From the NCBI GenBank assembly GCA_000806115.1, contig JWKQ01000001.1, positions 217,784 through 281,783 of the forward strand: 64,000 bases of DNA. Direction: 5' to 3'. Below are positions 12,901 through 54,032 of the stretch, in pieces. Origin of the DNA: an archaeon GW2011_AR5 (GTDB lineage: Archaea; Aenigmatarchaeota; Aenigmatarchaeia; GW2011-AR5). The first letter of the stretch is position 1; every line of letters starts with the position of its first letter. Both the position numbers and the translations under genes were made by a program. Under the pieces are notes generated by a model that was given only the letters and a program-made list of their open reading frames with translations, ran no database searches and was not told the origin of the DNA.

Positions 12901-13254
12901 CCATATGCCATTGCCGCCACTGTGGCGCTCAGCCAGATACCCATTTGTCCTTCAGCGGAAGACCAGCAGGAATGCTTCTCTGTATGCGGCAGCACCTACA
13001 CGACGAACGTTTCGGCTGCGCCTGTCTGCCAGGGTCCCGTAATCGGATACCAGGATGCAAGGTACAAATGCCTGCCCGGAACATGCGGAGGCTATGATAA
13101 CAAACAGGTGAAGATTCTGGTTAAGGGGCCCGATGGAAGCACAGCCATAGATGACACAACCACAACGGACAGCAACGGCGACTTCAGTTACACGTTTATT
13201 GCGCCGGGCGCCGACGGCGAGTTCACCATCATTGCAAGCGTGCCAAGAAGTTAA
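9910..13254 (+). CDS. giant secreted cysteine-rich surface protein (1114 aa)
   Basis: Features: N-terminal anchor/signal FVGLVILAALIMVSVPLPTIGAG; a segment at about 10621-10842 (TGTGTVTSNPPGINCGNTCTFDF..VTLTANPDTGQTFSGWSGGCTG..ICQV) resembling divergent InlB B-repeat domains; many Cys-rich blocks; and a C-terminal Ig/CarboxypepD_reg-like KILVKGPDGST...DSNGDFSYTF. Confidence 0.85.
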   Translation: MESGKFVGLVILAALIMVSVPLPTIGAGVVNAVDFPRAFGSPPADGGTCLSRDFENRCILKGGRYGVGRCVGAFSYSWHVEQTLYLTDIPTQTSLSACYDYCKNNYAQTCREPYIDSSSTVADGTNVPVGQTVTVTYSRNPNLQNSVIGQPLKITFKLSNEPTSYVDSCQSASCQKPFIVGNNLGLDVKAGDTLHYWIDMSLTDGTYIRSPASGVHSFTFASGATPPTNPPAQGKQRLAVTKTGTGTVTSNPPGINCGNTCTFDFNTGTPVTLTANPDTGQTFSGWSGGCTGTGICQVIMNGQKNVAAAFSSTTPPGTTGTITMEVLGQTVVGGSVMLRFRDLPANADPGRSQLEIRDPGGLRVYNSFLTSTLTQGEFDARIAFTPRTQGEHSVILVVNNNAGQRLGELRDQKFTVAAAGTTPAGQCNSACIGDGFGSGRCENTPLSNPQATSSAGGYGCPSTQYCNCYSTSAPPGTPGAGCCAVKEVNTYNSENSIRTRDECSRQGGVWGSTCDQAHNSACNQFCSGNGYGTAGTCNPAGTSSFTNICLNPTTPCVCTGTGQLRNTNIPCRQACSTDTRVSSGYGYGGYGYPGYSSPVVQSQAAQIPFGQCTNNPEALRFAWMASTQTTGTSGQYVREPFPLSQIPGQYQCGDDEFCVCTFLSLSSFSATNPSPVRNTPGSIQWDAPDAIPNPPVKQPNQRDCTVAANATITAMFAGNQTVGAGAASPTRLIQAGDSVTITGNVGKLSDSCEGYTYTCRKEKIIPCDTHNRVLWTSLSAEDCPAGTTLVNDPQEGRTANWRTIVGIALIAASFTPCDGACMSAGISSIIDGAVAGLNCDSGRTPQSNALLYYSMLQQVQERSSQNNPNNQGGGANLNFCCSQNDNAFCEDNSKRGTGYCIGSSVSCPNRYTKRTCPGTNTNANQNANTGGNNNADIDCVNPSEYCSLDGNCNAGSQEECWIGGTQGTCCSYSPTGAAVASNAGTSASAANNAAKYNPYAIAATVALSQIPICPSAEDQQECFSVCGSTYTTNVSAAPVCQGPVIGYQDARYKCLPGTCGGYDNKQVKILVKGPDGSTAIDDTTTTDSNGDFSYTFIAPGADGEFTIIASVPRS

Positions 13255-13297
13255 CTGAGATATACACAAACACTTTGTTAGCGTAAAGGAGCCAAAA

Positions 13298-16200
13298 ATG
13301 AGAAAAAAATTCTCACCGAACGCCAAAATGGGAATGGCATCACTTGTACTTCTGGCAATCCTTTTCTCAGCCGTTATTCTTTCACAGCCGTCTTCGGCGT
13401 CGCTCACCTTTCAGGGAAGGGCGTGCAACCAGAACAGCATCTGCGACGTGATACGCAACTGCGACTCTAACGGATGCACAAGCCGCTATGAGAACTGCCA
13501 GGCTTGCGGCACAACCAGCAAGGTGTGTCCCAACGGGGTGGCTACCGCACCCAATTCTTGTGTCGACTCGGGAACGCCGCGTTGCGTCCCCGGCGTGCCT
13601 GTTTGCGGCGCCAGCCAGGGAAGCACCGATCCCCATGTCATTCTCACTTTCACTGTTTTCACCAAGAAGAACCTGATTATGAACGTTTCTCCTGAAAGTC
13701 AAACCGCGCTCGCAGGCAAAACCCTGAACTACAAAATCAGCGCAGAAAACAAGAACCCCAAACAGCTGAGCTTCCAGATTAGTCACCAGATACCGGTGAA
13801 CTGGCAGATAAACATACCGGCCACCGTGTCAATTGCGGCAAACGGAAAAACAGAAATACCTTTCCGGGTAACATCCAATGATTCCGCTTCAGACGCGAGC
13901 TACCCGATAGTTGTAGGCTTGTTCAACTCGGAGCTCAACCTTTTCGGCACGGCAACCGCGCAGTACATCGTCGCATCGCGCGGCTCGCCGACAATTTCCG
14001 CCAGCCCAAGGAGACAGAGAGGATACCCTGGACAACAGGTTCTCTATAATGTTTCTATAACAAACAACGATCCGACTGATTTCGACCCGTCAACAATAAG
14101 CCTGCGCACAAACGCGCCCGCAGGATTCAACGCAGTGTTCACGCCGAACAGCGTGAACCTGCAGCCCGGTGAAACTCGCTATGTGCGCCTTGATGTCACA
14201 TCTCCAAACAACGCGACAGAGGCTCTATACGGGCTCACAATCAACGCCACCGCCAACAGGCTTACCGCAGTGGAGTTCATAGAATACGAGATAGACTTCT
14301 GCGGCGACGGCGTATGCCAGCAGGGCGAGGAAGCAGGTGCTGACGCCTCCGGCGTATCTCGTTTTTGCAGCACGGACTGCCCGGCTGACAGCAATTTCAT
14401 TTGCAACGGACGCTGCGAGAGGGAGGTGGACGACGGGCTTGAATTTTCGGCAACCGTCACCGTACCTTACACGAAGTTCATCGTATGCAGCAGGAACTCT
14501 TCCCTGCAAACCTGCGTTGCGTCCGCCGGAAGGGCGTCGACAAGCCCTTTTCCCGGCATAAATAATACTAACACCTCGGCGAATTGCGGCATAGGCAAGC
14601 CGTGCCTGTGCACGTCGCAGCAACCGGCATGCAAGACGCTCTGCGTCGACAACCGCGGAGTATACTATCTTGCCGCTAGCACAGGGAACAGTTCCTTGCG
14701 GGGCATAGTGAACTGGAGCTACGCATGTCCATGGGTTGATTTGCCCGAGATAAAGGCACTGAGAGAAAGCTTTTCAAATGCAAGGAATGAATACGAGAAG
14801 GCGCAGAGCGCGCTGAGGGAATCTCTGAACGCGCCGAACATGACAGTGCAGCGGAAGGCTGAAATCCGCCCGTGCATTGATGCGCTGTCGACAATAATAT
14901 CCGACACGACAAACTACGTTTCTTACCTTGACGCTGTCATAGCGTGGCCCGGCATCACCAACACAACCGCCGCGCGGCTCCGCGCATCTTCGCTGCGCGC
15001 AACCATAGAATCAACCTATAATGCTTACTGCCGCGGCGCCTCGGGCCTGCTGCAGATTGACAGCATAGTCGCGCCGCAGCTTGAAAAAGGCGAAATCGGA
15101 CAGGTAGTTGTGTCCGTGAGCAACGTCGGCAACACGCCTTACTACGGCTATGTCCAGTGTGACTTCACAGGCGCCGCGGGCGAACGGACATCAGGCAACG
15201 GCACATGCATCGCCATCGCCGGGAGCACGGGATTCGGCTTCGACGTCAATGCCAGCTCGGCAGGCAGGTGGAACGCCCGCTGCCGCACATACGGCTCACT
15301 TTTGACCAACTGCACGCTTGCGGCAATTCACAGCGAAGCGTCATCTCAATTCAACGTTTCAACGCGCGAAACCTTCGTGGTTGACGTCTCAGGCACCTGC
15401 ACAAACACCACTCTAACCTGCAACGTGCGAGGGTCCCAGGCGAATTGTGCGGGATGTGCAGCGCTTGACATCGGAGAGTGTACTTTGACATCTGCCGGGA
15501 ACGGCACAAATTCCACCAGCAGATTTGACTGTCCAAGAGCCGCATACGGCAACCATACTCTGGTAGGCTATGTCCTCGACAACGCAAGGTGCAAGCCCGT
15601 TGCACCGGAACAGAAGAACGTTACTGTGAGATGCACCGGATGCGGCGACGGAATTGTCGATACAAACGAACAATGCGAACTGCCCTACACAAACAACAAC
15701 CAGCGATGCAGCCAGGCTCAGAGCACCTGCCAGGGGCGGCTGTTCGGCATCCGCGATTCAGCCGGATTCTGCAACACCGACTGTTCATGCAGCCCGGACC
15801 AGTATGAATTCTCATGCACACGCGGGCAGTGCGGAGCCGAGTGTGCCGATGGGAACACAAGAACCGTAACCATAAACAAGACTGGCGGAAGCTGCGTATG
15901 CACCCAGCAGTGCTCGCCTTCGTGCGGATGGAACGCCTGCGACTGCGAACCGGGCGGCGGTGGAGGAGGAGGCGGAGGTGGAATATTCACGACACCGCCA
16001 TCTGTCCTGATAAGTCATGCTCCGCAGTCACCGACGTCAACAGGGACAGTTATGCTTACGGCAACAGCAGTCAACGCCACTGAAGTGGAGATATATGTTG
16101 ACGGCTTCATCGTCAGGAGCTGCCAGTCATCAACCTGCGCGCTTACAGCATCGTACACTCCGGGTGTACACAGTTATTTCGCGCGCGCAGTGAACACGGT

Positions 16201-18268
16201 TGGCACGGACACAGACCCCGACCAGGGAACGAAGTCATTTACTATTCCTGCATCAGGCGGAGGAGGAAGCACGAATCAAACCGGCAACCAGACTGTCAAC
16301 GCAAGCGGTATATCTCTTGGAATATCACACTCGCCGCAGAGCCCGACAACAGCAGATACAGTAGCAATAACAGCCACAGCAAGCTCGAACGCCAACAGGA
16401 TAGAAGTTTATGCCGACGGGCTGTTGTCGACGGTATGCAGCAGCTCCCCGTGCATTTTCGAAAGCACATACACAACAGGCACTCACACATACTTTGCAGT
16501 CGCTTATAATTCTGCCGGCAATTCGGTATCAAACCCTGCAAGCGGAACAAGGTCTTTCACTGTGAGGGCTATCAGCACGCCGAACCAGACAACCCCGCCA
16601 GGCCAAACACCGCCGAACCAGACAACTCCACCCAACCAGACAACCACTACAAACAACAGCATATCACTAACGGTTTCGCACAACCCCCAGAGCCCGACCA
16701 CTGCGAACACCGTCACGATAACCGGCGCCGCAAGCGTCAATGCAAACCGCGTAGACATATATGTTGACGGGTTCCTGGCAAGGAGCTGCACCGAGTTCGT
16801 ATGTTCTTACGCATCGTCCTATGCCGCAGGCAGCCACACTTATTTTGCGCTGGCGTCCGACTCTGCCGGCAACTTCGTCACAAATCCTCTAACAGGCACA
16901 AGAAGCTTCACTGTAACACAAACGAACGTTGCCAACGGCACGGGCGGCACCAACGGCACTGGCGGCCTTGGAACTACCAATATTATACTGGATATCAGCC
17001 ATAACCCTCTTGAAATAACCACGAGAGACGCGGTTACGTTAACGGCTGTCGCGCACGGACCGCGCAGCTTCAGGGAGGTCAATATATTTGTCGACGGCAG
17101 CCTCAGGAAAACCTGCACCAACTCGCCGTCGTCACAACCTTGCACTTTCCGCTCCACGTTCCCGGAAGGAAGCCATGAATACTTCGCAACGGCCGTTGAC
17201 GTGACGAACAGCTCGGCTCGCGACCCGGCGTCTGGCTCGGAAGGCTTCACGGTGTCTGCGCCGGCGCCCATTGAGGAGCCGCCGCCTCCGGGCGGGCCCC
17301 CGATAGGAAGCGGGCCTCCGCCGTCGACAGGCGGATCGTCGCAGGGAGCGTGCTTCGCAAAAATCACCGACAGGAACTGCACGTACAACACCGCCACGAG
17401 GCGCTATGACTTGCGGATAGCGGCGATGTGGGACAACGGAACTCACGCGCACTGGGAGATTGACAACGGCGGCGAGAGCAAGATGATTTACACGAAGAAC
17501 TTCACCCACACGGAGCCGCTGTCTGCGCCCGGCATGAAGTCTGTCGAACTGCTAGTGCACAATGTCAACAACTCGCTGCTATGCAAGGACAGTACTGAAG
17601 TATATTGCGGGCCCGGCTCGGCAACAGGAAAGGACATTGACATGATAATAGACGTCAAGGACGTCGTGAAAACCGGACTCATAGACGTGCGCGTCATCGT
17701 TGCGCCTTACATCAACATCAACGGGCTACGCCTCCTCAGCTACGTGGAGAGCCCGCTGAACGTCACCAACGTACGCATGGAAGGCAACACGAGCCTGTCG
17801 AGCATCAGCGTGCCGGCACGCGTGGCCGAGGACAAGTCGTACACTGTCCACACCGCAAGCACGAACCTGCTTGCCGGGAAGAACGTCTCGCTGCTGTACA
17901 AGGTGCGCATAGACAACCCCGGCGAATACAAGCTCATGGCTGTCGCCAACTATTCGGGCACAAGCCAGAGAGTTACAAAGACCCTCAAGGCGACGAACTG
18001 CCCGCAGGCGTTCCCTGTGCTCGCGGTGTCGCCGAGCGGACTGTGCTTCGAATATGCCACGCCATGCGACAAGCCCGAGGGATGGACAATAGTGGAGAAG
18101 TGCCCGGACGCCACGCAGCCGGAGGAATCCAACCCATGGCCGCTTGTCATACTCATAATAATAGTCGTTGTCGCGGCGCTCCTGATATTCAAGAACAGGG
18201 AAAGGCTGAGGGGCATTTCTTTGAGAAGAAAGCCGAAAGAGGAGCTGCCGCGGTTCGAGGAAGAATAA
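13298..18268 (+). CDS. giant membrane-anchored surface protein (1656 aa) with CARDB/NEW3-like domains, Cys-rich CGDG repeats and four Ig-like repeats
   Basis: Features: signal peptide MGMASLVLLAILFSAVILSQPSSA; CGDGVCQQGEE and CGDGIVDTNEQCE motifs; a G9 run; four repeats of about 95 aa; and a C-terminal TM WPLVILIIIVVVAALLIF followed by KNRERLR. Confidence 0.9.
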   Translation: MRKKFSPNAKMGMASLVLLAILFSAVILSQPSSASLTFQGRACNQNSICDVIRNCDSNGCTSRYENCQACGTTSKVCPNGVATAPNSCVDSGTPRCVPGVPVCGASQGSTDPHVILTFTVFTKKNLIMNVSPESQTALAGKTLNYKISAENKNPKQLSFQISHQIPVNWQINIPATVSIAANGKTEIPFRVTSNDSASDASYPIVVGLFNSELNLFGTATAQYIVASRGSPTISASPRRQRGYPGQQVLYNVSITNNDPTDFDPSTISLRTNAPAGFNAVFTPNSVNLQPGETRYVRLDVTSPNNATEALYGLTINATANRLTAVEFIEYEIDFCGDGVCQQGEEAGADASGVSRFCSTDCPADSNFICNGRCEREVDDGLEFSATVTVPYTKFIVCSRNSSLQTCVASAGRASTSPFPGINNTNTSANCGIGKPCLCTSQQPACKTLCVDNRGVYYLAASTGNSSLRGIVNWSYACPWVDLPEIKALRESFSNARNEYEKAQSALRESLNAPNMTVQRKAEIRPCIDALSTIISDTTNYVSYLDAVIAWPGITNTTAARLRASSLRATIESTYNAYCRGASGLLQIDSIVAPQLEKGEIGQVVVSVSNVGNTPYYGYVQCDFTGAAGERTSGNGTCIAIAGSTGFGFDVNASSAGRWNARCRTYGSLLTNCTLAAIHSEASSQFNVSTRETFVVDVSGTCTNTTLTCNVRGSQANCAGCAALDIGECTLTSAGNGTNSTSRFDCPRAAYGNHTLVGYVLDNARCKPVAPEQKNVTVRCTGCGDGIVDTNEQCELPYTNNNQRCSQAQSTCQGRLFGIRDSAGFCNTDCSCSPDQYEFSCTRGQCGAECADGNTRTVTINKTGGSCVCTQQCSPSCGWNACDCEPGGGGGGGGGGIFTTPPSVLISHAPQSPTSTGTVMLTATAVNATEVEIYVDGFIVRSCQSSTCALTASYTPGVHSYFARAVNTVGTDTDPDQGTKSFTIPASGGGGSTNQTGNQTVNASGISLGISHSPQSPTTADTVAITATASSNANRIEVYADGLLSTVCSSSPCIFESTYTTGTHTYFAVAYNSAGNSVSNPASGTRSFTVRAISTPNQTTPPGQTPPNQTTPPNQTTTTNNSISLTVSHNPQSPTTANTVTITGAASVNANRVDIYVDGFLARSCTEFVCSYASSYAAGSHTYFALASDSAGNFVTNPLTGTRSFTVTQTNVANGTGGTNGTGGLGTTNIILDISHNPLEITTRDAVTLTAVAHGPRSFREVNIFVDGSLRKTCTNSPSSQPCTFRSTFPEGSHEYFATAVDVTNSSARDPASGSEGFTVSAPAPIEEPPPPGGPPIGSGPPPSTGGSSQGACFAKITDRNCTYNTATRRYDLRIAAMWDNGTHAHWEIDNGGESKMIYTKNFTHTEPLSAPGMKSVELLVHNVNNSLLCKDSTEVYCGPGSATGKDIDMIIDVKDVVKTGLIDVRVIVAPYININGLRLLSYVESPLNVTNVRMEGNTSLSSISVPARVAEDKSYTVHTASTNLLAGKNVSLLYKVRIDNPGEYKLMAVANYSGTSQRVTKTLKATNCPQAFPVLAVSPSGLCFEYATPCDKPEGWTIVEKCPDATQPEESNPWPLVILIIIVVVAALLIFKNRERLRGISLRRKPKEELPRFEEE
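15985..17255 (+). repeat. four tandem in-frame repeats of about 95-100 codons (Ig-like) separated by N/T/P-rich linkers
   Basis: The repeated peptide pattern is ISH.PQSPT....V.ITA.A......V.IYVDG.....C....C......Y..G.H.YFA.A....G......P..G..SFTV, seen four times. Linkers include TPNQTTPPGQTPPNQTTPPNQTTTTNN. Confidence 0.75.
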
Positions 18269-18825: not shown

Positions 18826-19686
18826 ATGATAATCAGCCGGCGGGATTTCTTGACAGGCGCGGCGTGCGCAGCCGCTGTTGGGATAGCGTCAGACGGGCCT
18901 GCTTTCACATACGACAGCGCAAGCTGGGAGAATGTCCGGGAAGGGCTTGAATTCTCAAGAATACGCGTTTATGAAAGGGGAAAACCCATCGACACGCTGG
19001 CAGTACTCAGGGCAGACCCTGAAAGGAACAAATTCGATTTGTATCATGACAGGAACGGAAGAAAAACGGCAGAAGACTGGAGAAGGCATGTAGGCGCCGA
19101 TGCAGTTTTCAATGCGGGATTCTACAGGTATGTAAGAGGATACGGACTGTCCACAGAACCTGCTGCCCTTTCCATAAGCGAGGGAAGCATTCTTGGGCCC
19201 AGAAACAACAGAAGCGTAAAGGGCGCATTCGTTGCCGAACCAATGAGCGGAAGAAGACCGTACGCAAGGCTCATAGACATGGATCATGAAAAGGGGTATA
19301 ACCAATACAACTGGAACACTGCGGTTAATTCATGGCCCATGTTAGTTCATGCAAACGGAACTCTTGGAGGCTCCGGCTCCAAAAGCGACAGCCGGACAGC
19401 CGTTTGCGAGGACGGGCATGGAAGGATACTGGCGGTCACCACCGAGGACAATAACCTGACGCTTCCCGGCTTTGCCCGTGCACTGCGCGACAGCGGACTT
19501 GACGTGAAAAAAGCACTGAATCTGGACGGCGGGCATGCGGCACAAATGTATATCGAGCGCGGCGGGATAAGATATGCGACATACGGAAAGGAACAAAAAA
19601 TGCTTGGCATACAGTTCTTGGACAGGCTCGTGGAAAGCGTGAAAGTCCCAATACCCGGCGTCATAGGCATTTCGGAGAGGCGATAA
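18826..19686 (+). CDS. phosphodiester glycosidase (NAGPA/DUF2233) family protein with a twin-arginine signal
   Basis: The Tat motif is MIISRRDFLTGAACAAAVG. The C-terminal SRTAVCEDGHGRILAVTTED...LNLDGGHAAQMY is typical of the family. Confidence 0.7.
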   Translation: MIISRRDFLTGAACAAAVGIASDGPAFTYDSASWENVREGLEFSRIRVYERGKPIDTLAVLRADPERNKFDLYHDRNGRKTAEDWRRHVGADAVFNAGFYRYVRGYGLSTEPAALSISEGSILGPRNNRSVKGAFVAEPMSGRRPYARLIDMDHEKGYNQYNWNTAVNSWPMLVHANGTLGGSGSKSDSRTAVCEDGHGRILAVTTEDNNLTLPGFARALRDSGLDVKKALNLDGGHAAQMYIERGGIRYATYGKEQKMLGIQFLDRLVESVKVPIPGVIGISERR

Positions 19687-19688
19687 AG

Positions 19689-20261
19689 ATGAAGAAATTC
19701 CTCGCAGCTGCCGCTGCTTTGACTTATCTTGCACAGCCGGCACAGAACGATGCAACAGCCAGAACAGCGACTGATAATTTCAAGAGTTCGGCTTCGATAC
19801 TTATTGACAAGAGCGAAAGAAAAGTCATGGTTTACCAGAATGAAGTGCTTGCTTTCTCTTTTCCGGCCGACTTCGGAAAAGACTGCACAGACATGAGGGA
19901 CAAATCGGACGCAATAGACACTTGCACGCCCGAGGGCTCTTATAAAGTCCTTGAAAAACGCGGGATAAATCGGACAAGACGATACAAGGAACTTCTATTG
20001 GATTATCCGACCCAAGACGACCTGTCCGCCGGAGCAAGGGCCGGCGCCGTAGGCTGGCGGGATATTGTGAGGGATCTTTATTACAGGATAAGAAGGGGAC
20101 ATCCTGCTTACGACACGAAGCTTGGCGGACCGTTCGGCATACAGGGCTATGGCGGAACAGGCAAGGACTGGACAGACGGCTATGTCGCCATCAGCAACGA
20201 AGCTATGGACAAGATTTTTCCGATTGTCGTGAAAGGCAGCGCCGTGAACATAGTTAAGTAA
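19689..20261 (+). CDS. secreted L,D-transpeptidase (YkuD)-like protein, apparently lacking the catalytic His and Cys
   Basis: Features: signal-like MKKFLAAAAALTYLAQPAQ; ILIDKSERKVMVYQNEVL...TPEGSYKV; and FGIQGYGG...TDGYVAISNEAMDKIF, which aligns by eye to the GIHG...SxGCIR motif with Q152 and Y165 at the catalytic positions. Confidence 0.55.
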   Translation: MKKFLAAAAALTYLAQPAQNDATARTATDNFKSSASILIDKSERKVMVYQNEVLAFSFPADFGKDCTDMRDKSDAIDTCTPEGSYKVLEKRGINRTRRYKELLLDYPTQDDLSAGARAGAVGWRDIVRDLYYRIRRGHPAYDTKLGGPFGIQGYGGTGKDWTDGYVAISNEAMDKIFPIVVKGSAVNIVK

Positions 20262-23210
20262 TCAGGCATTAGTTCCAAGATGCAGCGCATCGACATCCGC
20301 CGTCACCTGCACCGGATTCTTGCAAAACAAATTTGTGCAATAGAAATTGTAGCTGTTTTTTGTCGCCTGCGCGTATGTCTTTGAGGTTTGTCCGTCTTTG
20401 CGCTTCTTGGCTTCAGGAACTATCGCATAGTCCGGCTCCTTTCCGAACTTCCTCTTCCATGCCTTCTTGATTTCCCTATAAACTGTCGTCTGCTCGAACG
20501 CCTTCGTCTTCTCCTTTCTCAGCTCGTTGCCAACCTGGATGTTCGTCATCTGGATATTTTGCGCGCTCAGGAAATCCCTTACTACGAGCTCGGTATTGCT
20601 TGGCCTGTCGACAGGTTCCGGCGGACACGTATCCTCATAGCTCAGCATGTCGCCGTCGAGCACAAGATTACTGCTCATCAATTCGTTGAGCTGCTTCTGC
20701 AGCGCCGCGTTCCTTGAGGAATATTCTCCGGCAGCGTAGTCGCCCGCTATGTACATGAGAGACGCGTCAGTGAAAGCGCCGTTGGGGGCGTATATGCCTG
20801 CCAATTCCTCCACGTACTTGTTTCCGTAGAGGAGGCAGCCGTTCATAGTGAGCATGCTGTTGTATATGTCTCCCATCCTCCGGGGCGGCACACCTGTCAG
20901 CACCGCAGCCTTGCAAAGCCGTATCTGCATGCATCCCAGCGTCGGGCCTCCCGTGTTCATTCTGAAAAGATCCTGGAACCAATACTGAGTCTTCGCGGCG
21001 GCTTCCTTGACGTTGAACGGGTTCGCCTCGAATTTTGATTCCTGTCCAGTGAAAGACGCAATGAGAGAAACATATTCAGGCTTCTTGTATTTCGCAGTAT
21101 TGACAATTGCGACCGCCCATTCGCGCGCATCCGGTTTTCCGTATTTTTCCTTTATGGATTTCTCAAGCTGCATAATCAAATCCTGGTTCTCTGCCCCCAG
21201 GCTGGCGTACTGATAAGAATATTTATCCGGAATATTTTGCGGTATCCGTATCGTGTTTCCTTCGTACTTTTCGATATTTGAATTTTCAACAAGTGAATTA
21301 ATTTGCGCCGTTAACCACATGTATTCCTCTTTCCTGCTGCCGAAAATCCCGGGCACAACCGAACGCAGCGTGTCACCCTCCTCTATCACCTTTGTTTCAA
21401 ATGAAGGGTTATAGTTCTCAACTACCCTGTACAGCTTCTCCCGGTTTGGCTTCATTAAAAACCTTATCTTGAAGCTGCTGCCGAATCTTGCCAGAAAATT
21501 TTCAAGCGACTCTATTCTTACAGGATCTTCGCTGCTTTTGGGAGGATGAAAAAGATGCGTTATTATGTGCTCTCTGCCGCGCTTTCCGAGGTACATTGCA
21601 GCGTGCGTGAAATCAATGTCAGGTGTGTTGCCAAGTTCGCGGCCTTTTTCCTTGTCAGCCCTGTAATCGCTGCCTGAATAATAGAAACCTATTATGTCGC
21701 CAGGCTCCATTATGTCGTAGTTGGTAAATATTTCACCGTTCCTCCAGTCAAATTTCGTTGCCGTGCCGCCGTGTTCTTCTATATTCTCCGGCATGTCCCA
21801 GGCATTTCCGCCGACGCCCGTAATGAAATGTTTCCCTATGCCGAAAACATATTCATGGACTCTTGTTACATACTGCGCGCAGTTCGCGCCAAGGCAAAGA
21901 GGGTCTTTCCTTATGAAGCCTTTGAAACCCCCCATAACCGAGCTGAGTCTTTCCGGAATTGTGCCTGCAGTTTCATAAACCTCTATATCGGTGCATATTT
22001 TGTAATTGCTGTTGTATGAGCATCCCAACTTCTCGCAGGAACTCTTTGAACAGCCTGAAATGAAGCCAAAGAGCCCTGAGCCGCATGATGAGCAGTCTTC
22101 TGAATTGTCTTTGCATGAGATTGATTTCGGATCCTTCGAACTTATCATGCCTGAAATCGAATTAATCAGCGCGACAAACGCCCTGTTGTAGTCAGATTTC
22201 TGGATAGCCGCCTTTATTTCTTCCTTCCCGATTATCCTGTCAATTTCCCCCGTAACGACACCGCATTTTGACGAATGCCCTATCACAAATTTGTTTTCCT
22301 TCTTTCCATAGAAAATAACCATGTTAAGAGCCGGCGTCCCAAGAGTTCTCATTTCTCTTTCAGTGAATTTTTTTGACACAAGCAATGCGCTGTCAGCACC
22401 GATAGAATTCAAGGTTTCAATAATAATCAGAACATTTTTTCTCTTATAGATATCCGACAGGATTTTTTTAATCTCGGCGTCATTTGTCAGAATATTTGCC
22501 CGGTCTTTCAGGTAGTCCGGCGATTCATCGTCAGGATTTGTTTCCTCCCCCATTATGCAGCATTGATTACCGGCAGCGCCCGGGCAGAGCCCTTTGACAG
22601 GCGTTCCGCTTTTTGACTTGCACAGTGCGGTGTCCATGCAGTAAAATTCCTCCTTTGGCGACCTGCATCTTGTTGTGCTTATCTCGAAAGTTCCTGCCCT
22701 GTGCGTCATGCCAAAAATTCCGCCATTGGACCATACGATGCACTCTCCGGATTCCTTGCAGTCCCCGTCACTTCCTACTCTTATGACAACTTCCGAATCA
22801 CATTCGATAGATGTCACCTCCCGAGTCCTGACTCCGTTATTCTCAACCCAATATCCGCAATCGGTGTTCCCCTCGATCCTGACAGTGAAGTCCGAGGTTT
22901 TTATGACACCCGTAAGCTCCTCACTCCTTGACGGTCCGCAGAACGTGTACTCCCCTTTCAGAATTTTTTCCTTTGTGCCGGTTCCTTCACTGCTCTTCAG
23001 ATAAGGACCCTCCGGCGTGCCGGGCAGCCCGCACATCTGTATCTTATTCGGGCCCGTACACCATCCCCTTATTTTCTCGAGCCCTGAGGGGCATTCAAAG
23101 TTCGCGGCAGACGTGTCAAAGCATGAGTATTTTTGGCACGGCGCCGCCGCATTAATCCCGTAAACGACGGGAAGCATCATGAGGATTAACACAAAATATA
23201 CAATTTTCAT
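20262..23210 (-). CDS. secreted multidomain cell-wall hydrolase-like protein (982 aa): Cys modules, TPM-like, papain-like (NlpC/P60/CHAP-like), LysM-like and lytic-transglycosylase-like regions
   Basis: Features:
- signal peptide MKIVYFVLILMMLPVVYG
- Cys modules CPSGLEKIRGWCTGPNKIQMC and GTPVKGLCPGAAGNQCC
- GANCAQYV (Cys444) paired with FTHAAMYLG (His536)
- IEEGDTLRSV...GNTIRIP, which looks LysM-like
- TGQESKFEANP...GPTLGCMQI, which looks SLT-like
The start overlaps the upstream gene by 4 nt. Confidence 0.85.
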   Translation of the reverse strand: MKIVYFVLILMMLPVVYGINAAAPCQKYSCFDTSAANFECPSGLEKIRGWCTGPNKIQMCGLPGTPEGPYLKSSEGTGTKEKILKGEYTFCGPSRSEELTGVIKTSDFTVRIEGNTDCGYWVENNGVRTREVTSIECDSEVVIRVGSDGDCKESGECIVWSNGGIFGMTHRAGTFEISTTRCRSPKEEFYCMDTALCKSKSGTPVKGLCPGAAGNQCCIMGEETNPDDESPDYLKDRANILTNDAEIKKILSDIYKRKNVLIIIETLNSIGADSALLVSKKFTEREMRTLGTPALNMVIFYGKKENKFVIGHSSKCGVVTGEIDRIIGKEEIKAAIQKSDYNRAFVALINSISGMISSKDPKSISCKDNSEDCSSCGSGLFGFISGCSKSSCEKLGCSYNSNYKICTDIEVYETAGTIPERLSSVMGGFKGFIRKDPLCLGANCAQYVTRVHEYVFGIGKHFITGVGGNAWDMPENIEEHGGTATKFDWRNGEIFTNYDIMEPGDIIGFYYSGSDYRADKEKGRELGNTPDIDFTHAAMYLGKRGREHIITHLFHPPKSSEDPVRIESLENFLARFGSSFKIRFLMKPNREKLYRVVENYNPSFETKVIEEGDTLRSVVPGIFGSRKEEYMWLTAQINSLVENSNIEKYEGNTIRIPQNIPDKYSYQYASLGAENQDLIMQLEKSIKEKYGKPDAREWAVAIVNTAKYKKPEYVSLIASFTGQESKFEANPFNVKEAAAKTQYWFQDLFRMNTGGPTLGCMQIRLCKAAVLTGVPPRRMGDIYNSMLTMNGCLLYGNKYVEELAGIYAPNGAFTDASLMYIAGDYAAGEYSSRNAALQKQLNELMSSNLVLDGDMLSYEDTCPPEPVDRPSNTELVVRDFLSAQNIQMTNIQVGNELRKEKTKAFEQTTVYREIKKAWKRKFGKEPDYAIVPEAKKRKDGQTSKTYAQATKNSYNFYCTNLFCKNPVQVTADVDALHLGTNA

Positions 23211-25732
23211 GCCGTGTCCTCCCCGAAAAGATCGATTCCAACTATGTCAAACCCGACCTCTCCATAGACATTTGCTTCCTGGCTGCACAAAGATGCCGGC
23301 ACGCACGCGCCGCCGGACCACATGCATCCCATCCGCGCGCAGGATTTTTGGCACCCTGACGAGTCGATAATGCTCCCCATGCTTTCAAGAATTCCGGAGC
23401 ATACAGAGCCGCACTGGACGCTGCTGCTCTTCACTGTGACGCGCGTGCCTGCCGCGACGCTGCCGAATACGCCTGAAATATCGTCGCACTCCGTGTCGTG
23501 CATGCCGACGCACTGAAAGCTGCGCTCGTTGTTGTTGATGCCGAGCCAGTAGTTGCCGGCTATATTGCATGACGAAGCCGCACCTTTTGTCGCTTTCTCG
23601 GTTATCTCCAGCCTGCCTTCCGGCAGCACGAAGGAATTGTCCTCATTCACAGTCTGCCGGCTAAGGCACGCCTTCCATCTTTGGTAATTTGCCGTGTACC
23701 TCGGGTTTTCCCTCTGTCCCATTATGTCCTCGACGAAATTCTCATCTTCCCGCAGGGGGTCGTTCAGACATCGCGCCGGCCAGCCGTTGTAGTAGCGAAG
23801 AACAACCTCTTCTATAGTGCCGTATGTTTTGCCCTTGCAGTCGTACACTTTCCTTCCCACGTCTCCTGCCTGCGTCCTTGCAAGGTTAGAGAGGTACTTC
23901 ACCCCGCAGTCTATTGTTGCGTCAACGTCATGTTCGCGTATTTTCTGCTGGTCACACTCCGGATGCACGGGAACGTTGATTTGCATTATGCCCGTGGACG
24001 AGCCGCTCTCTGCATTCTCGTTCCACGCGGACTCCTTGGAGATAAGCGCGGCGACTAATGCCTGAGGACTGTCTGTTAACGTCATACGGTATTTTTCTAT
24101 CTTCGAGTTGATGACGTCCCTGTAGGCGTTATACTTGTCTATGAAAGTTTGCGGTATGCCTTCGCACTGGCTTGATATGCCGGCGCTTGCCGTGGTTTTG
24201 CTAACTGCGGCTTTTATCGGATTGTCGGGCATTCCGTTCCTGCAAAGGTAAACGTCGTTACAATCAAGTTGCACGACGCCTCCGTCGTCATTCGGCGTGT
24301 TGCATTTCTCGCCCTTCTTCATCACTACGACTTCTGTGCGCCGCTCGCCCGGGCAGATGTTCTCGCATGCGCCGCCCTGCGGCGCATTGTTGTTCCACAT
24401 GCATCCGTCAATGCTGACGCATTTCTCCATGCTACAGCCGGGGAATGAGTCGCACTCTGTCCTGCAGTCTTTCACGTCGAACTTCTCGCGGCAGACGTCA
24501 CCAGAGGCAGATTTTTCTGCGATGACAGCTTCCAGCAATCTCACAAGATTGTTGAATGCCTCGTCGTACTGCTTCAGTTCCGCCTTCTTTCCCACGCTAT
24601 CGTCGGATATTATCTTCCTGAGCGTAGCCTCCTCGACGCCGCAATTCTCCGAGCCGCGCAGGATGTGCCACTGATTTCTCGCCTTGCCGTAAAGTATTAT
24701 CATGGTAAGCTTCTTTCCGCTCTGGTGAAGCTTGTACTTGAAATCAAACCTGTTCAGCATGCTCTGTTCCGCATCAGGCGGTATTTCATCAACCATCTCA
24801 ATTATTATTTTCGCGTCATAGTTCTGGCTTATCAGGTTTAGCCGGTTGTCGATTTCCGACAGTGAAAGCGTGCCTGTTGCGTCGTACGCAAAAGAATCGG
24901 ACGCCGCGTAGGTTTGCTGGTATATGCAGCATTCGATATTGCTCGGCGCGCTTGGACAGTAAGTTCTGATAGGCGTGCCGCCGGTGGCTGTGCATTCCGC
25001 CTTGTCAATGCACTGGCTTGTTGTGTATTTTCTGCACGATCCGTACGCGCCGGACGGGCGGTAGAATGTTATGCTGAATGTCCTGCTCTCCCCGCCGTTT
25101 GCAACGGTGCAGACGTTCTCCCCCTCGTCGCGGCAGTCGCCGTTGGGGCCCACCGTTATGGTTACCCACGAGCCGCAAGCCGCGCTGTCACGCTTCGTCT
25201 CGACATCCTTGCTCTTCACGGAGTATGTACATGTGCCCGTGCCGTCAAGGAAGAATCTGAAGTCCTGCACCTGCACGTTGGACGGAAGGCTCGTGACGAT
25301 ACCGGGGCCGTAAACGCGCCTGCCAACCGGCGTCCCGGGAGACGCGCAGCACTGGATATCATTCCCGCCAAGGCACCAGCCTCTCACATACGTAAGCCCG
25401 TCCTGACATGAATGCCTGTTTATGTCGTAGCATTTGTAAGTGCCGAGAGGCGCATCGCAGTATCCAACATAGCCCAGTCCTGGACCGCCCACCCTCGGCC
25501 CTTCGGGAGTGCCTGCAGGCGCGCAGCACTGTATGTTGTTTCCGCCGGGACACCATCCACGCACGTAGGTAAGTCCCTCTCCCGGACAGTAGGGAGTTTC
25601 TGTCTTGTCATAGCAATTGTAGGCTGCAGAAGACGAACTCAGCGGATTATCACAATTCCCATATGTTGTTCCCTGCGCCGCGAAGGCGGGAACTGCAAGC
25701 AGCAATGCAAACGCGATTAATACCAGTTTCAT
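23207..25732 (-). CDS. secreted multidomain protein (841 aa) with three RGWC..CC Cys modules, a TPM-like region and a soluble lytic transglycosylase (SLT/goose-lysozyme-like) domain
   Basis: Features: signal peptide MKLVLIAFALLLAVPAFA; LTYVRGWCPGGNNIQCC, LTYVRGWCLGGNDIQCC and TPIRTYCPSAPSNIECC; and the SLT motif LISKESAWNENAESGSSTGIMQINV, with the Glu567 codon at 24032-24034. Confidence 0.88.
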   Translation of the reverse strand: MKLVLIAFALLLAVPAFAAQGTTYGNCDNPLSSSSAAYNCYDKTETPYCPGEGLTYVRGWCPGGNNIQCCAPAGTPEGPRVGGPGLGYVGYCDAPLGTYKCYDINRHSCQDGLTYVRGWCLGGNDIQCCASPGTPVGRRVYGPGIVTSLPSNVQVQDFRFFLDGTGTCTYSVKSKDVETKRDSAACGSWVTITVGPNGDCRDEGENVCTVANGGESRTFSITFYRPSGAYGSCRKYTTSQCIDKAECTATGGTPIRTYCPSAPSNIECCIYQQTYAASDSFAYDATGTLSLSEIDNRLNLISQNYDAKIIIEMVDEIPPDAEQSMLNRFDFKYKLHQSGKKLTMIILYGKARNQWHILRGSENCGVEEATLRKIISDDSVGKKAELKQYDEAFNNLVRLLEAVIAEKSASGDVCREKFDVKDCRTECDSFPGCSMEKCVSIDGCMWNNNAPQGGACENICPGERRTEVVVMKKGEKCNTPNDDGGVVQLDCNDVYLCRNGMPDNPIKAAVSKTTASAGISSQCEGIPQTFIDKYNAYRDVINSKIEKYRMTLTDSPQALVAALISKESAWNENAESGSSTGIMQINVPVHPECDQQKIREHDVDATIDCGVKYLSNLARTQAGDVGRKVYDCKGKTYGTIEEVVLRYYNGWPARCLNDPLREDENFVEDIMGQRENPRYTANYQRWKACLSRQTVNEDNSFVLPEGRLEITEKATKGAASSCNIAGNYWLGINNNERSFQCVGMHDTECDDISGVFGSVAAGTRVTVKSSSVQCGSVCSGILESMGSIIDSSGCQKSCARMGCMWSGGACVPASLCSQEANVYGEVGFDIVGIDLFGEDTA

Positions 25733-25733
25733 G

Positions 25734-26105
25734 TCAGACGCTCCCCGGCCTTGTGTATATGTACAGCGAGTCAGAGCCTGCGTTCACTGCAGACAAGCTC
25801 TGCCCCGTTTCGCCGTCGGGCACATAGCAGCCGCACGCTTTCGCGCACTGGGCAGTGTCGCCAAAACCGCTCCTGCCGCATACGAAGCCGAAATTTGCCT
25901 CCTCAACGCTGATGCTGTTGACTTCCTTGTGGTCGCAGTCGTGGAAAGCCCGCAAAGATGCGCAGCCTTCGAGGAACAGCTTCTTGTTATTGACGCTGTC
26001 GTCGTTGAAGAATCCGAAGAAGAAGCCTCCTATGGCTGCGAGCACCAGCAGCGCTACGGCGACGAATATTATCACGTTAAGAGGGAGTTCCATACCCTTG
26101 GGCAT
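25734..26105 (-). CDS. small N-terminally anchored cysteine-rich protein (MELPL family), first gene of the minus-strand operon
   Basis: The N-terminus is MPKGMELPLNVIIFVAVALLVLAAIGGFFF. The stop lies 1 nt before the start of the 841 aa gene. A TATA-like TTATATAAC sits about 20-27 nt upstream on the minus strand. An alternative start is the ATG at 26093. Confidence 0.7.
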   Translation of the reverse strand: MPKGMELPLNVIIFVAVALLVLAAIGGFFFGFFNDDSVNNKKLFLEGCASLRAFHDCDHKEVNSISVEEANFGFVCGRSGFGDTAQCAKACGCYVPDGETGQSLSAVNAGSDSLYIYTRPGSV

Positions 26106-28518: not shown

Positions 28519-28667
28519 TGGGCCCGACGAGATTCGAACTCGCGACATCCTGCTAACCTTTTTAGAAAAAAGCTTAACCAAAAACTTCTTTCTATATTAA
28601 GAGGCAGGCGCTAGCGGCGTATGAAATGCGAAGCATTTCGTGCACTACCAGGCTGAGCTACAGGCCC
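28519..28667 (-). tRNA. tRNA-Lys(CUU) with two introns (32 nt in the D-arm and 43 nt at 37/38)
   Basis: The spliced reading is GGGCCTG TA GCTC AGCCTGGTA GAGC G CCTGC CTCTTAA GCAGG ATGTC GCGAG TTCGAAT CTCGT CGGGCCC A. The 74 nt of exon plus 75 nt of intron equals the 149 nt observed. Confidence 0.8.
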
Positions 28668-32585: not shown

Positions 32586-35528
32586 ATGCGTAAAGCGTTT
32601 CTGGCGCTTGTTGTGTTCATTGCATTTTCTGCCGTCGTTTATGCAGATTCTTCCACCCTGTCAGTGACGTCGACACCAAGCGGCGCGACCGTGAGCAATA
32701 TCAACACCGGGCAGGTTTACTGCCAGCAGACGCCGTGCAGCGTTCAGGTCACCGTCCCGCCCAATTCCGTCAACATAAAGATTTCACTGGCTGGATACTA
32801 TGACTGGACTTATCTTGTTTATCTCTATGCCAACCAGACGACGAACGTGAGCGCTTCGCTGTCCGCGGTTCCGGCAGATCCCTGCGCCAACGTGACTTGC
32901 AACGTGCAGCCTATTTCGTTGTGCGAGGACAGCTACCTGAGAACTTATAATTCCACAGGAACCTGCAATAACGGCGTATGTTCTTATTCCTCGTCCACGG
33001 CGCTGTGCCCATACGGCTGCTACAACAGCGCATGCGTTTCCCAGAATGCCTGCTCCAACGTGACGTGCAACAGCCCGTACCCTTCTTACTGCAGCGGCAC
33101 AAATCTCGTGACCTATACTCTTCCCGGGACTTGCAACCTTGGCGTGTGCTCCTACTCGTGGTCAATGGCTAACTGCACAGGCGGCTGCTCCAACGGCGCA
33201 TGCCTGAACAGCACAAACAGCACTGGTGGAGGTTCAGGAAGCGGCAACAGCACAAACAGCACTGGTGGAGGTTCAGGAAGCGGCAACACAACAGGAAACA
33301 GCACAGGAGCGCCGCGGGACAACCAGACTTGTACCGACACGGACAGCGGACTTAATTATTATGCACAGGGAACTATCACAGACGCCGCACACCTCACCCC
33401 TCCGACCCGCACCGACTACTGCCTGAAAGACAGTCCCAACGACAATGCCCTGAATTATATCAGCGGATCTCCATACACCTATCTAATAGAAATGTATTGC
33501 AACAGCACATACAATTCCGGCATGAGCTATATTTACAACTGCACATACGGCTGCACCAACGGCGCCTGCCTGAACCAGACTGCCGATCCGTGCGCGGGCG
33601 TCACTTGCAATAATCCGCCTGCGCCGCACTGCACCAACGGCACCATGATAACGCGATATTTTTCTCCCGGCATATGCTCCGGCGGCGTCTGCTCCTATGT
33701 GCCCTACACTAACTGGACATGCTCCGGCGGCTGCTCCAACGGAGTATGCATAAACCAGACAAACGCTTGCGGCAACGCAACATGCAACATTCCACCGTTG
33801 CCTTCATGCAACGGCAATATTCTCAATACTTATTATCCGGGCAGCTGCAATGCCACTACCGGCTCGTGTGATTATCCGCTCGTCACCACTGTGTGCATCT
33901 ACGGGTGTTCAAACGGTTACTGTAACGGAGCGCCTTCGAACGGCTCCGGCGGAGGCGGCGGTTCCAGTGGCGGCGGAGGAGGCGGACCTAGAAGCGCACC
34001 GGCGTGCCCGCAAGGCTGCGAGTGCAGGTACGATGTTTATGGAAACATTGCTTCTTCCTACTGCCAGACAGAACAGAGCTGCAACTACAACGGCGTATGC
34101 GACAAAGGCGAAGGGACAGACTGCCGCGATTGCATAGGAGCTGAATGCCCCGTAAGCAAGACATGCGGCGACGGCTCACTTGTAAACTGCTACCGGTCCG
34201 AATCCGGATGCTCATGCGGAACATGCCCAATACCCGTGCGAAACCTGCCGTTGGGATGCACCCAGGCAACTGAAAACGGCTTTGTGCGCATCATATGCGA
34301 GAACCGTGTAATATGTCCGCCCATTCAAAGCGGGGCAAAAGAGAAGTGCATAAACATCGGCGGCAAGCCGTCGGTTATCAGGGGCGCAAACAGCTGTGAT
34401 ATGTTCCAGTGCGACCTGGACGGGCAGGATACTGCATCCTCAATATTTGCCGCACCTGCAGGATGCCCCTCCCCGGATGACATTTCAATGGGGCTTGAAA
34501 AATGCAGGAGCCTCAACCTGACGGGCGTCATGGCGTTCGAGGGCGGCTGTAAGATCGGCAAGTGCATTGAAAGAAGCACCGGCTGCAAGCCTCTTGCAAG
34601 GGAGTCTGTGGAAGACTGCAGGAACAGGGGCGGCAACATAATAACGTCGGTAGGCGAGAACGGATGCCCGTCGTTCACATGCGCCCGGAAAGAAAGCGAA
34701 TGTGAAAAAGACCTGCCCAAGGACGCTTACCAGAAGTGCGGGGAAAACGGCGGGCAGCTTGTCGTGAGACATGACGACGACGGATGCGTGTCATTCGCCA
34801 GCTGCCTCACGCGCGGAGAGGTCTCGGATTCGTTTGTGGAAGACATAAAGGAAGTGCCAAGCCCGACGGAGATGCTTTCAATTGCATTAAAGCTGGAGAA
34901 CCTGAGGCTTGAATTTGACAAGCTGGCGAAGAAGACAAATGACATCGCGGACTATTACAAATCCGCCGGCTCCCCTGAGGAGAACCGGTTCAGGCGCGTG
35001 TCGGACATGTTCTCTTCGGCGAAAGACAAGGTGGACGAGATAAAGACTAAGATTCGCGACAACCTGGACAGCATTGACGCGGACAAGCTGCTGCAGATAA
35101 AGCAGGATGTCAGGTACCTGAAGGACGTTGTCATAAAGGACATATTGTACGTGATGCTGAGCAGCGGCGACGACATCGAACATATCAAGAGCGGGACAAC
35201 AAAGGACTGCGGAACCGACAACAGCTGCTTTGACCGGGCGATACGGGTATGCCAGCCCGTCACATTCATGCCGGACGGAACGCGCGGCATGCTTGTCGAA
35301 CTGGACGGACTTGAGGGCGACTCGTGCGTCATGCGCGCCAGCATCCCCGAAAGCAGCCTGAGCGCAAGCGGTATAAACCCGCCGTATGAAATGACGTGCA
35401 AGATTCAGAAGTACACCCTTGGCGTGAGCAACCCCGAGAGGGACATATTCCCCTACTGCACCGGCAATTTGCTGCAGGTAATAAAAACAGGCGGAGCAGG
35501 CTCGGCTGTGAAACAAACAGCCGGATGA
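32586..35528 (+). CDS. secreted giant Cys-module protein, paralog 1 (980 aa) with an N-terminal PEGA domain
   Basis: Features: signal peptide MRKAFLALVVFIAFSAVVYA; a PEGA-like segment LSVTSTPSGATVSNINTG...ISLAGYYDW; four modules of about 50 aa with the pattern C.NVTCN.P....C......Y...G.C..G.CSY....C..GC.NG.C; and a conserved C-terminal half with a coiled-coil segment. Confidence 0.9.
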   Translation: MRKAFLALVVFIAFSAVVYADSSTLSVTSTPSGATVSNINTGQVYCQQTPCSVQVTVPPNSVNIKISLAGYYDWTYLVYLYANQTTNVSASLSAVPADPCANVTCNVQPISLCEDSYLRTYNSTGTCNNGVCSYSSSTALCPYGCYNSACVSQNACSNVTCNSPYPSYCSGTNLVTYTLPGTCNLGVCSYSWSMANCTGGCSNGACLNSTNSTGGGSGSGNSTNSTGGGSGSGNTTGNSTGAPRDNQTCTDTDSGLNYYAQGTITDAAHLTPPTRTDYCLKDSPNDNALNYISGSPYTYLIEMYCNSTYNSGMSYIYNCTYGCTNGACLNQTADPCAGVTCNNPPAPHCTNGTMITRYFSPGICSGGVCSYVPYTNWTCSGGCSNGVCINQTNACGNATCNIPPLPSCNGNILNTYYPGSCNATTGSCDYPLVTTVCIYGCSNGYCNGAPSNGSGGGGGSSGGGGGGPRSAPACPQGCECRYDVYGNIASSYCQTEQSCNYNGVCDKGEGTDCRDCIGAECPVSKTCGDGSLVNCYRSESGCSCGTCPIPVRNLPLGCTQATENGFVRIICENRVICPPIQSGAKEKCINIGGKPSVIRGANSCDMFQCDLDGQDTASSIFAAPAGCPSPDDISMGLEKCRSLNLTGVMAFEGGCKIGKCIERSTGCKPLARESVEDCRNRGGNIITSVGENGCPSFTCARKESECEKDLPKDAYQKCGENGGQLVVRHDDDGCVSFASCLTRGEVSDSFVEDIKEVPSPTEMLSIALKLENLRLEFDKLAKKTNDIADYYKSAGSPEENRFRRVSDMFSSAKDKVDEIKTKIRDNLDSIDADKLLQIKQDVRYLKDVVIKDILYVMLSSGDDIEHIKSGTTKDCGTDNSCFDRAIRVCQPVTFMPDGTRGMLVELDGLEGDSCVMRASIPESSLSASGINPPYEMTCKIQKYTLGVSNPERDIFPYCTGNLLQVIKTGGAGSAVKQTAG
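33207..33284 (+). repeat. perfect 39-bp tandem duplication inside the CDS
   Basis: AACAGCACAAACAGCACTGGTGGAGGTTCAGGAAGCGGC occurs at 33207-33245 and again at 33246-33284. It encodes NSTNSTGGGSGSG twice. Confidence 0.9.
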
Positions 35529-35537
35529 GGCGACTAC

Positions 35538-35723: not shown

Positions 35724-35829
35724 CTTTTCCTTGCATTATGACAACAGAAAGGCGCCGCGCAGGAAACGTAATTAGAGCCAATCACGGCGCAGGAAAACTT
35801 AATATACAGCCCGGAACGATGTTATTAAA

Positions 35830-41604: not shown

Positions 41605-41605
41605 A

Positions 41606-54026: not shown

Positions 54027-54032
54027 CTCATT

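Follow-up and report, generated by a model that had tools for sequence, protein, structure and literature searches.

Cysteine-rich repeats (CRRs, or CysRReps) are small secreted modules with six cysteines, the last two of which are adjacent. First described in the ascidian protein rusticalin (PMC6339383), they have since been catalogued in 382 proteins (PMC7379824) and then in 1246 (bioRxiv 10.64898/2026.06.07.730663, below the 2026 preprint), nearly all of them eukaryotic. According to the 2026 preprint, their cysteines follow the spacing Cx6-9Cx5-7Cx8-11Cx7-8CC and the repeats lie mostly N-terminal to peptidoglycan hydrolase domains; the partners named in the literature are PF00959, PF01510, PF13539, PF01832 and PF01183. 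Among the 339 species with a CRR in the preprint, 324 are eukaryotic, 13 bacterial and 2 archaeal, and a prokaryotic origin was judged unsupported. The function of the repeat is termed unclear in this literature, where it is treated as marking sites of gene transfer. In the Trichoplax GH23 lysozyme PLys, denaturation takes place at 50-60 degrees C with an N-terminal domain of two CRRs, as against 25-35 degrees C without it; the domain also makes the specific activity about three times lower and is lost on maturation (PMC12855814). Here, we consider a locus in a 64-kb stretch of DNA (the window) from the DPANN archaeon GW2011_AR5, whose named relatives are Aenigmarchaeota. Two tandem genes of this locus encode proteins of 841 and 982 amino acids, predicted to be secreted, that carry five CRR copies within a common N-terminal platform, followed by different ends predicted to degrade cell walls. 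The repeat itself is known, if obscure; what is little known is its conserved and fixed use in an archaeal platform with interchangeable ends of this kind.

Two other groups of described proteins come close to those of the locus. Lytic transglycosylases of DPANN archaea have been proposed to act on bacteria, and fam00969 (Castelle et al. 2021) and the GH23 proteins of Woesearchaeota (Vigneron et al. 2022) are likewise secreted SLT/GH23 proteins of ultra-small archaea that were read as directed at the bacterial wall. The accessible parts of these reports deal with proteins from Woesearchaeota and Pacearchaeota, which reach 3000 amino acids, and describe no CRR, TPM domain, cysteine connector or C-terminal swapping. 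Modular cell-wall hydrolases of bacteria and phages that carry LysM, SH3b, PG_binding_1 or CW_7 as binding modules follow the same logic as the window proteins, in that catalytic domains are joined to small, repeated, non-catalytic modules. By contrast, Pfam detects none of these modules in the window proteins, the non-catalytic part of which spans about 460 residues and five module types. To the eye, residues 604-655 of the 982-residue protein look LysM-like, but this has no Pfam support and is not claimed.

An initial annotation of the window had taken the repeated module for an unfamiliar and perhaps new one. Judged by its sequence, it is a member of the rusticalin-type CRR family, and so it has been published. 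This assignment is based on the fit of the cysteine spacing, on profile detection in both directions above shuffled controls and on a database entry recovered in common. In the 841-residue protein, the cysteines of copy 2 are spaced by 8, 7, 10 and 7 residues before the final CC, and those of copy 3 by 7, 5, 11 and 8; copy 2 of the 982-residue protein has 8, 5, 11 and 7, again before CC. The remaining two copies deviate: copy 1 of the 841-residue protein (12, 8, 11, 7) has first loops longer than the published spacing, and copy 1 of the 982-residue protein (4, 9, 10, 8) ends in MC. A profile of 79 copies from outside the archaea, taken from fungi, rotifers and others, scores the 841-residue protein at 45.3 bits and the 982-residue protein at 33.4 bits. 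The single copies of the former reach 22.6, 23.0 and, for copy 3, 29.3 bits, and the maximum among 4000 composition-preserving shuffles is 15.8 bits. Conversely, an archaeal-only profile finds fungal and other eukaryote-like multi-repeat proteins among 1.84 billion representatives (E = 1.5e-13 to 7e-4). Its fungal matches are from Onygenales and Jimgerdemannia, and Mortierella was found with a mixed module profile; the proteins of these fungi carry two to four CRR copies. With a two-module profile that has window copies among its sequences, Vanrija albida Q8F55_006254 is found together with Mycena, rotifer and Myxococcota/Bradymonadia proteins. The Vanrija protein is listed as 'first cysteine repeat' in the tables of the 2026 preprint, which hold the same taxa as well.

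A short, cysteine-rich module is one for which profile scores can inflate, and some of the archaeal copies, namely those with an RGWC motif, are divergent, the RGWC copy of the 982-residue protein scoring just 8.5 bits against the non-archaeal profile. Both points would fit an archaeal module that merely converges on the eukaryotic cysteine spacing and is otherwise unrelated. Nevertheless, convergence is very unlikely, given that archaeal and eukaryotic copies also agree at non-cysteine positions (G-x-C ahead of cysteines 2 and 4, GG behind cysteine 3, CPG, and [ND]-I-Q-C-C), that detection works both ways with database-wide significance and above every shuffle, and that the functional context is identical in the two sets.

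The further claim that the module lies outside the known carbohydrate-binding and peptidoglycan-binding families (in Pfam, LysM, SH3b, PG_binding_1, CW_7, hevein and others) held, since it matches no Pfam family and no PDB sequence. Neither archaeal nor eukaryote-type copies match Pfam at E up to 1, and no model for the module emerged when both proteins were scanned against NCBIfam and PHROGs. Whole-protein sequence searches of the PDB with both proteins gave nothing useful, and module-profile searches gave only the CLIP domain 2ike at E = 0.27. Like described CRRs, the archaeal copies have the six-cysteine spacing ending in CC, the G-x-C, CPG and [ND]IQCC motifs, a secreted context, and a single or tandem arrangement fused to hydrolases. 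They differ from these in their archaeal host, in the aromatic-rich, divergent RGWC subtype of the N-terminal copies and in their place within a fixed platform, where copies may be internal or C-terminal. The RGWC subtype has 3.9 aromatic residues per copy, and copies outside it have 0.7. Among divergent members of the archaeal lineage, the repeat occurs in two subtypes and in as many as four copies in one protein. In the window, a hidden Markov model of the module scores only the 841- and 982-residue reading frames among 917 six-frame open reading frames (ORFs). All five ranges initially given for the module translate to cysteine modules; the fifth, 22554-22643, leaves out the first cysteine, and the full copy extends over 22557-22667.

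The fold predicted for the repeat raises the question of whether it is a defensin. For copy 2 of the 841-residue protein, AlphaFold predicts three strands from an alignment of 91 sequences, with a mean predicted local distance difference test (pLDDT) score of 81. Six cysteines, a terminal CC and G-x-C are common to the CRR and to beta-defensins, the tick carboxypeptidase inhibitor and arthropod CLIP domains, and the strands predicted for the CRR may form a three-stranded sheet as in beta-defensins. A Foldseek search with the single-module model returned no significant match (E above 2); the small structures that rank highest are Hact-SCRiP1 (7lx4) and human beta-defensin 3 (1kj6; E = 6, TM-score 0.38), both of which we take to be defensin-like folds. 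From HHpred, Daugavet et al. (PMC6339383) had also reported that CRRs are similar to the tick carboxypeptidase inhibitor as well as to beta-defensins. On such grounds, the CRRs could be regarded as defensin-like antimicrobial units that harm bacterial membranes and so aid the hydrolase domains. We give this little credence. The structural matches are insignificant, no Pfam defensin model matches the CRR copies, and homology at the level of sequence was rejected after hhalign of the module profile gave a probability of 3.9% against seven beta-defensins. In addition, CRRs have longer loops than the three comparison families and are not cationic: the archaeal copies are near neutral, with a mean charge of -0.4 (-2 to +2 in the window). 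The likeness to defensins is one of pattern and possibly of topology.

The 841- and 982-residue proteins are tandem paralogues. That the two should be alignable over about 400 N-terminal residues had been proposed as the critical point for this relationship, and BLASTP aligns residues 94-449 of the former with residues 23-402 of the latter (29% identity, E = 7e-37). The N-terminal order of domains is common to both, as first described, and is read here as one or two CRRs, an immunoglobulin (Ig)-like beta-sandwich block, another CRR, a domain with the TPM fold and a six-cysteine connector. Thus, CRRs flank the Ig-like block; far C-terminal copies are present in P0005, P0009, P0012 and a protein of locus L002 (P-numbers denote proteins found in searches, and L001, L002 and L003 are loci in related genomes). 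Pfam has no model for three of these modules, namely CRR, Ig-like block and connector. The beta block is read as an Ig-like sandwich because related proteins show weak matches to Big_3_2 and Big_13. On its own, it forms up to 27 repeats in giant surface proteins.

The TPM-like domain noted at the outset proved real by Pfam and by fold comparison. With a gathering score of 22.1 bits for PF04536, the domain of the 982-residue protein passes and that of the 841-residue protein falls just short (Table 1); six of seven relatives scanned score 19.9-24.7 bits. When residues 1-465 of the 841-residue protein are modelled with AlphaFold, the mean pLDDT is 59 and the TPM part reaches 65-84. In a Foldseek comparison of this model with the PDB, TPM structures rank at the top (5anp, 2lt2, 7tbr, 4oa3 and 3pvh; probability 1.0, target TM-score 0.55-0.67), and the TPM assignment therefore stands; the E-values, 3e-3 to 1e-2, are no better because the query was a multidomain model of 465 residues. 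The domain has the fold of the TPM proteins AtTLP18.3, Psb32, BA41/BA42 and Rhom172_1776 and belongs, weakly, to their family by sequence as well; it differs in sitting inside a secreted hydrolase instead of forming a membrane-anchored, stand-alone protein. One such protein is encoded in the window itself, and its identification was confirmed by Pfam (41540-42526, plus strand; E = 9.5e-30). It was considered as the source from which the fused domain was copied, and this was rejected, as it has no pairwise similarity to the 982-residue protein, TPM-like domain included. The stand-alone protein ends in a cysteine-rich, zinc-ribbon-like stretch, CPRCGSRKIKCTEHGCTCQKCG; we know of no such C-terminus in typical TPM proteins.

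The connector has the pattern C-x3-C-x(n)-C-x3-4-C-x3-4-G-C-x-[WYF]-x(n)-C. There are 16 copies in the 12 family members scanned; each member has one behind the TPM domain, and proteins of the 841 type have another near the C-terminus. No PDB match and no convincing family was found for it. Notch LNR repeats (PF00066) were considered as a family for it and set aside, as 1 of the 16 copies matches (E = 2.8e-5) and none from the window proteins.

Behind the platform, the two proteins part, as the initial annotation had it. The 841-residue protein carries an SLT lytic transglycosylase core that scores above the PF01464 cutoff of 21.3 bits and also matches the endolysin family phrog_669 (E = 1.4e-5). 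This core contains SKES, and the catalytic Glu-Ser motif, ALISKESAW, is kept in four orthologues. It is followed at about residues 700-770 by a region that can be aligned to YkuD of P0007, a domain confirmed there by Pfam, and that does not have the S-x-G-C catalytic loop; this region has no Pfam match of its own, and a PDB profile search with it was empty. At the very C-terminus (23207-23260) there is a conserved acidic tail, FDIV(G/A)(I/L)DLFG(E/G)D(T/A)A, common to P0018 and without a hydrophobic anchor.

In the 982-residue protein, the platform is followed by a region that is probably a papain-like peptidase or amidase, with invariant Cys and His and the motifs N-C-A and F-T-H-x-A-x-Y-L-G in seven orthologues. 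Two of the seven have weak matches to Peptidase_C92 that remain below the cutoff (E = 0.003-0.018). The protein ends in a DUF1615 domain that is possibly lysozyme-like: an hhalign comparison with an SLT alignment pairs the ES motifs of the two families at a probability of 41%. PDB profile searches with the papain-like region and with DUF1615 found nothing.

The complete scaffold is rare. An exhaustive HMMER search of the 1.84 billion representatives, with a profile of the modules and the beta block, yields 71 proteins with E no higher than 1e-3, of which 18 have E no higher than 1e-30, and only about a dozen of the 71 have the whole scaffold. Many others have the beta block alone, and a third group has the CRR alone in tandem arrays; for instance, P0030 has nine copies ahead of GH25. 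Other hydrolase partners of the CRR seen in the searches are GH24 (PF00959) and, in P0056, a weak VanY/M15-like match below the Pfam cutoff. A word-indexed search found just two truncated relatives with the N-terminus as query and four short proteins with a single-module profile. Orthologues of the pair are named as Candidatus Aenigmarchaeota or Aenigmatarchaeota, and NCBI labels them 'lytic transglycosylase domain-containing', 'TPM domain-containing' or 'DUF1615 family'. In Parcubacteria GW2011_GWA2_42_28, a bacterium from the candidate phyla radiation (CPR) whose name has the same GW2011 prefix as AR5, protein A0A0G0ZY06 is given with CRR and SLT in Table T4 of the preprint; ultra-small bacteria and archaea may share this CRR/SLT design.

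Among the relatives, the C-terminal ends are exchanged at a fixed site, as a comparison of the window with the L003 locus illustrates. The latter has the same small protein at its head and a gene of the 841 type, and then, in place of the 982-type gene, that of the YkuD-bearing P0007 (3486-6776). Where the 982-residue protein has its papain-like region and DUF1615, P0007 has YkuD and a different C-terminal part. At L002, a gene of the 841 type is followed by one of the 982 type and then by a gene with Amidase_2 and YkuD. The ends of other members are given in Table 1.

Taken with moderate confidence, the reading favoured here is that the locus is an operon for a small, membrane-anchored, cysteine-rich protein and two Sec-secreted, disulfide-rich paralogues that degrade bacterial peptidoglycan through a conserved platform with interchangeable ends. 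Both paralogues begin with a hydrophobic, signal-peptide-like segment, seen by direct reading of the sequence, and they contain 50 and 32 cysteines, respectively, which would be disulfide-bonded. The platform would hold and stabilise the enzymes outside the cell and direct them to the bacterial envelope, with the aromatic-rich CRRs as the wall-contacting units. The domains behind it, SLT and a probably degenerate YkuD-like region in one protein and a papain-like region and DUF1615 in the other, might then act jointly, cutting the glycan strands and also the peptide stems while bacteria are attacked or attached to. It is plausible that the CRR binds the cell wall, which fits its association with murein hydrolases of many folds. 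An envelope-contacting and stabilising role of the repeat is favoured because copies are interspersed, because an aromatic RGWC subtype exists and because the murein-hydrolase partners are of many unrelated folds.

A purely structural role has to be weighed against this. CRRs might act mainly as disulfide rivets, or as a removable pro-domain that stabilises or restrains the enzyme, and recognise no substrate. The CRR domain of Trichoplax PLys, which stabilises, lowers activity and is absent from the mature form (PMC12855814), would be expected of such a module, and eukaryotic CRRs are usually N-terminal. Archaeal copies, however, are interspersed and aromatic-rich; the internal and far C-terminal ones fit a simple N-terminal propeptide poorly, and it would be surprising for a generic stabiliser to accompany murein hydrolases with so many unrelated folds. 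A structural role alone is therefore rather unlikely.

Several observations weigh against a peptidoglycan-degrading system with wall-binding CRRs. The activities of the papain-like region and of DUF1615 are not established, and the AlphaFold model of the whole N-terminus of the 841-residue protein is weak (mean pLDDT 59). One protein has two CRR copies behind a papain C1 peptidase, placing the repeat beside an enzyme that does not act on walls. The source aquifer is anoxic, which puts in question how 50 cysteines get oxidised. Moreover, CRRs stand beside SUMF1-type enzymes, likewise not directed at walls, in Myxococcota (tables of the 2026 preprint), and the sole experiment with a CRR domain showed stabilisation, lower activity and proteolytic removal (PMC12855814).

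The target could also be an archaeal envelope, either the cell's own or that of an archaeal host, instead of bacterial murein; cultivated DPANN archaea are, as far as is known, episymbionts of other archaea (PMC8204110). This is highly improbable in view of the murein-directed neighbours, a YkuD gene in the window and the Amidase_2 and YkuD gene at L002. SLT and YkuD enzymes are specific for glycans with N-acetylmuramic acid and for stems with D-amino acids, which are not present in archaeal walls. In addition, the authors of the DPANN reports read such genes as aimed at bacteria. For degradation of bacterial peptidoglycan, the preferred reading, the surroundings are also informative: the YkuD and NAGPA neighbours in the window and the wall-active genes at L002 and L003 suggest that the locus is a small arsenal against murein. 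Thus, it points to interactions of Aenigmarchaeota-related archaea with bacteria and supplies concrete proteins with which these could be tested.

The archaeal platform also bears on the origin of the repeat, and supports a functional reading, whether wall targeting or stabilisation, over that of a mark of transfer sites. A bolder proposal, which we consider unlikely, is that the CRR was originally a prokaryotic murein-targeting module kept by organisms that attack bacteria (DPANN, CPR and predatory Myxococcota/Bradymonadia), and that eukaryotes obtained it with or alongside prokaryotic lysins. If true, it would reverse the published view, by which the CRR is a eukaryotic element marking where genes were transferred; the scaffold of the Aenigmarchaeota would be the first example in a native setting, and a new family of peptidoglycan-binding modules would be defined by the CRR.

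Table 1. Features of the hydrolase locus, with positions in the window, and C-terminal ends of related proteins
Feature	Position	Strand	Details
841 aa (amino acid) secreted multidomain murein hydrolase (predicted)	23207-25732	minus	exact match to KHO48258.1
CRR copy 1, 841 aa protein	25523-25654	minus	residues 27-70, RGWC type
CRR copy 2, 841 aa protein	25346-25459	minus	residues 92-129, RGWC type
Ig-like beta-sandwich block, 841 aa protein	25058-25285	minus	about residues 150-225, paired cysteines; AlphaFold strands
CRR copy 3, 841 aa protein	24926-25036	minus	residues 233-269; of this protein's copies, nearest to eukaryotic repeats
TPM-like domain, 841 aa protein	24527-24886	minus	residues 283-402; PF04536, 20.3 bits, E = 5.6e-4, just below cutoff
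Six-cysteine connector copy A, 841 aa protein	24365-24466	minus	residues 423-456; regular expression and alignment
SLT lytic transglycosylase core, 841 aa protein	23864-24073	minus	residues 554-623; PF01464, 27.6 bits, E = 2.3e-6
YkuD-derived region, probably degenerate, 841 aa protein	23423-23635	minus	about residues 700-770
Six-cysteine connector copy B, 841 aa protein	23303-23413	minus	residues 774-810; regular expression and alignment
982 aa secreted multidomain hydrolase (predicted)	20262-23210	minus	exact match to KHO48257.1, the same gene with a later start, 972 aa
CRR copy 1, 982 aa protein	23031-23138	minus	residues 25-60, RGWC type, MC instead of CC
Ig-like beta block, 982 aa protein	22686-22913	minus	about residues 100-175; aligned with the 841 aa block
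CRR copy 2, 982 aa protein	22557-22667	minus	residues 182-218; 33.4 bits against the non-archaeal profile
TPM-like domain, 982 aa protein	22152-22508	minus	residues 235-353; PF04536, 24.5 bits, E = 2.8e-5
Six-cysteine connector, 982 aa protein	21993-22094	minus	residues 373-406; regular expression and alignment
Probable papain-like (NlpC/P60-type) peptidase or amidase, 982 aa protein	21411-21953	minus	about residues 420-600
DUF1615 domain, 982 aa protein	20409-20945	minus	residues 756-934; PF07759, E = 3.1e-27
123 aa protein	25734-26105	minus	six cysteines, hydrophobic segment at the N-terminus; heads the apparent operon
Secreted YkuD L,D-transpeptidase-fold protein	19689-20261	plus	convergent neighbour; PF03734, E = 2.3e-10
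NAGPA phosphodiester glycosidase with twin-arginine translocation (TAT) signal	18826-19686	plus	neighbour; PF09992, E = 3.8e-17; TIGR01409
C-terminal end of P0018			SLT (Pfam scan)
C-terminal end of P0006			SLT, reprolysin-like metalloprotease-like region (below Pfam cutoff) and DUF1615
C-terminal end of P0007			YkuD (Pfam scan)
C-terminal ends of P0005, P0009 and P0012			conserved papain-like region and DUF1615
C-terminal end of P0021 (L001)			no match

The genes of the apparent operon are tightly packed. The reading frame for the small protein of 123 amino acids ends 2 nucleotides ahead of the start of the 841-residue gene, and the two hydrolase genes overlap by start and stop in ATGA. No family match to the small protein was found in Pfam or NCBIfam scans, and an orthologue with 75% identity occupies the same position on the related contig L003 (611-979). 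Its N-terminal hydrophobic segment is pilin-like (MPKGMELPLNVIIFVAVALLVLAAIGG); a comparison with a pilin-like protein of L002 showed no clear relationship. Its role might be to anchor the hydrolases, to act as their partner or to confer immunity to them.

Elsewhere in the window, the methionyl-tRNA synthetase matches KHO48251.1 exactly. Four very large ORFs of 980-1656 amino acids are present at 9910-18268 and 32586-38868, three of them with Ig-like or PEGA matches; that of 1656 amino acids is syntenic with a protein of 1695 amino acids adjoining the hydrolase locus of L003. Finally, there are three long tRNA genes, at 28519-28667 (minus), 52084-52217 (plus) and 53940-54027 (plus), which measure 87-149 nucleotides against a model of 71 positions; all three are read as carrying introns, which indicates an archaeal source. 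ARAGORN detects only the one at 53940-54027, to which it gives an odd four-base anticodon.

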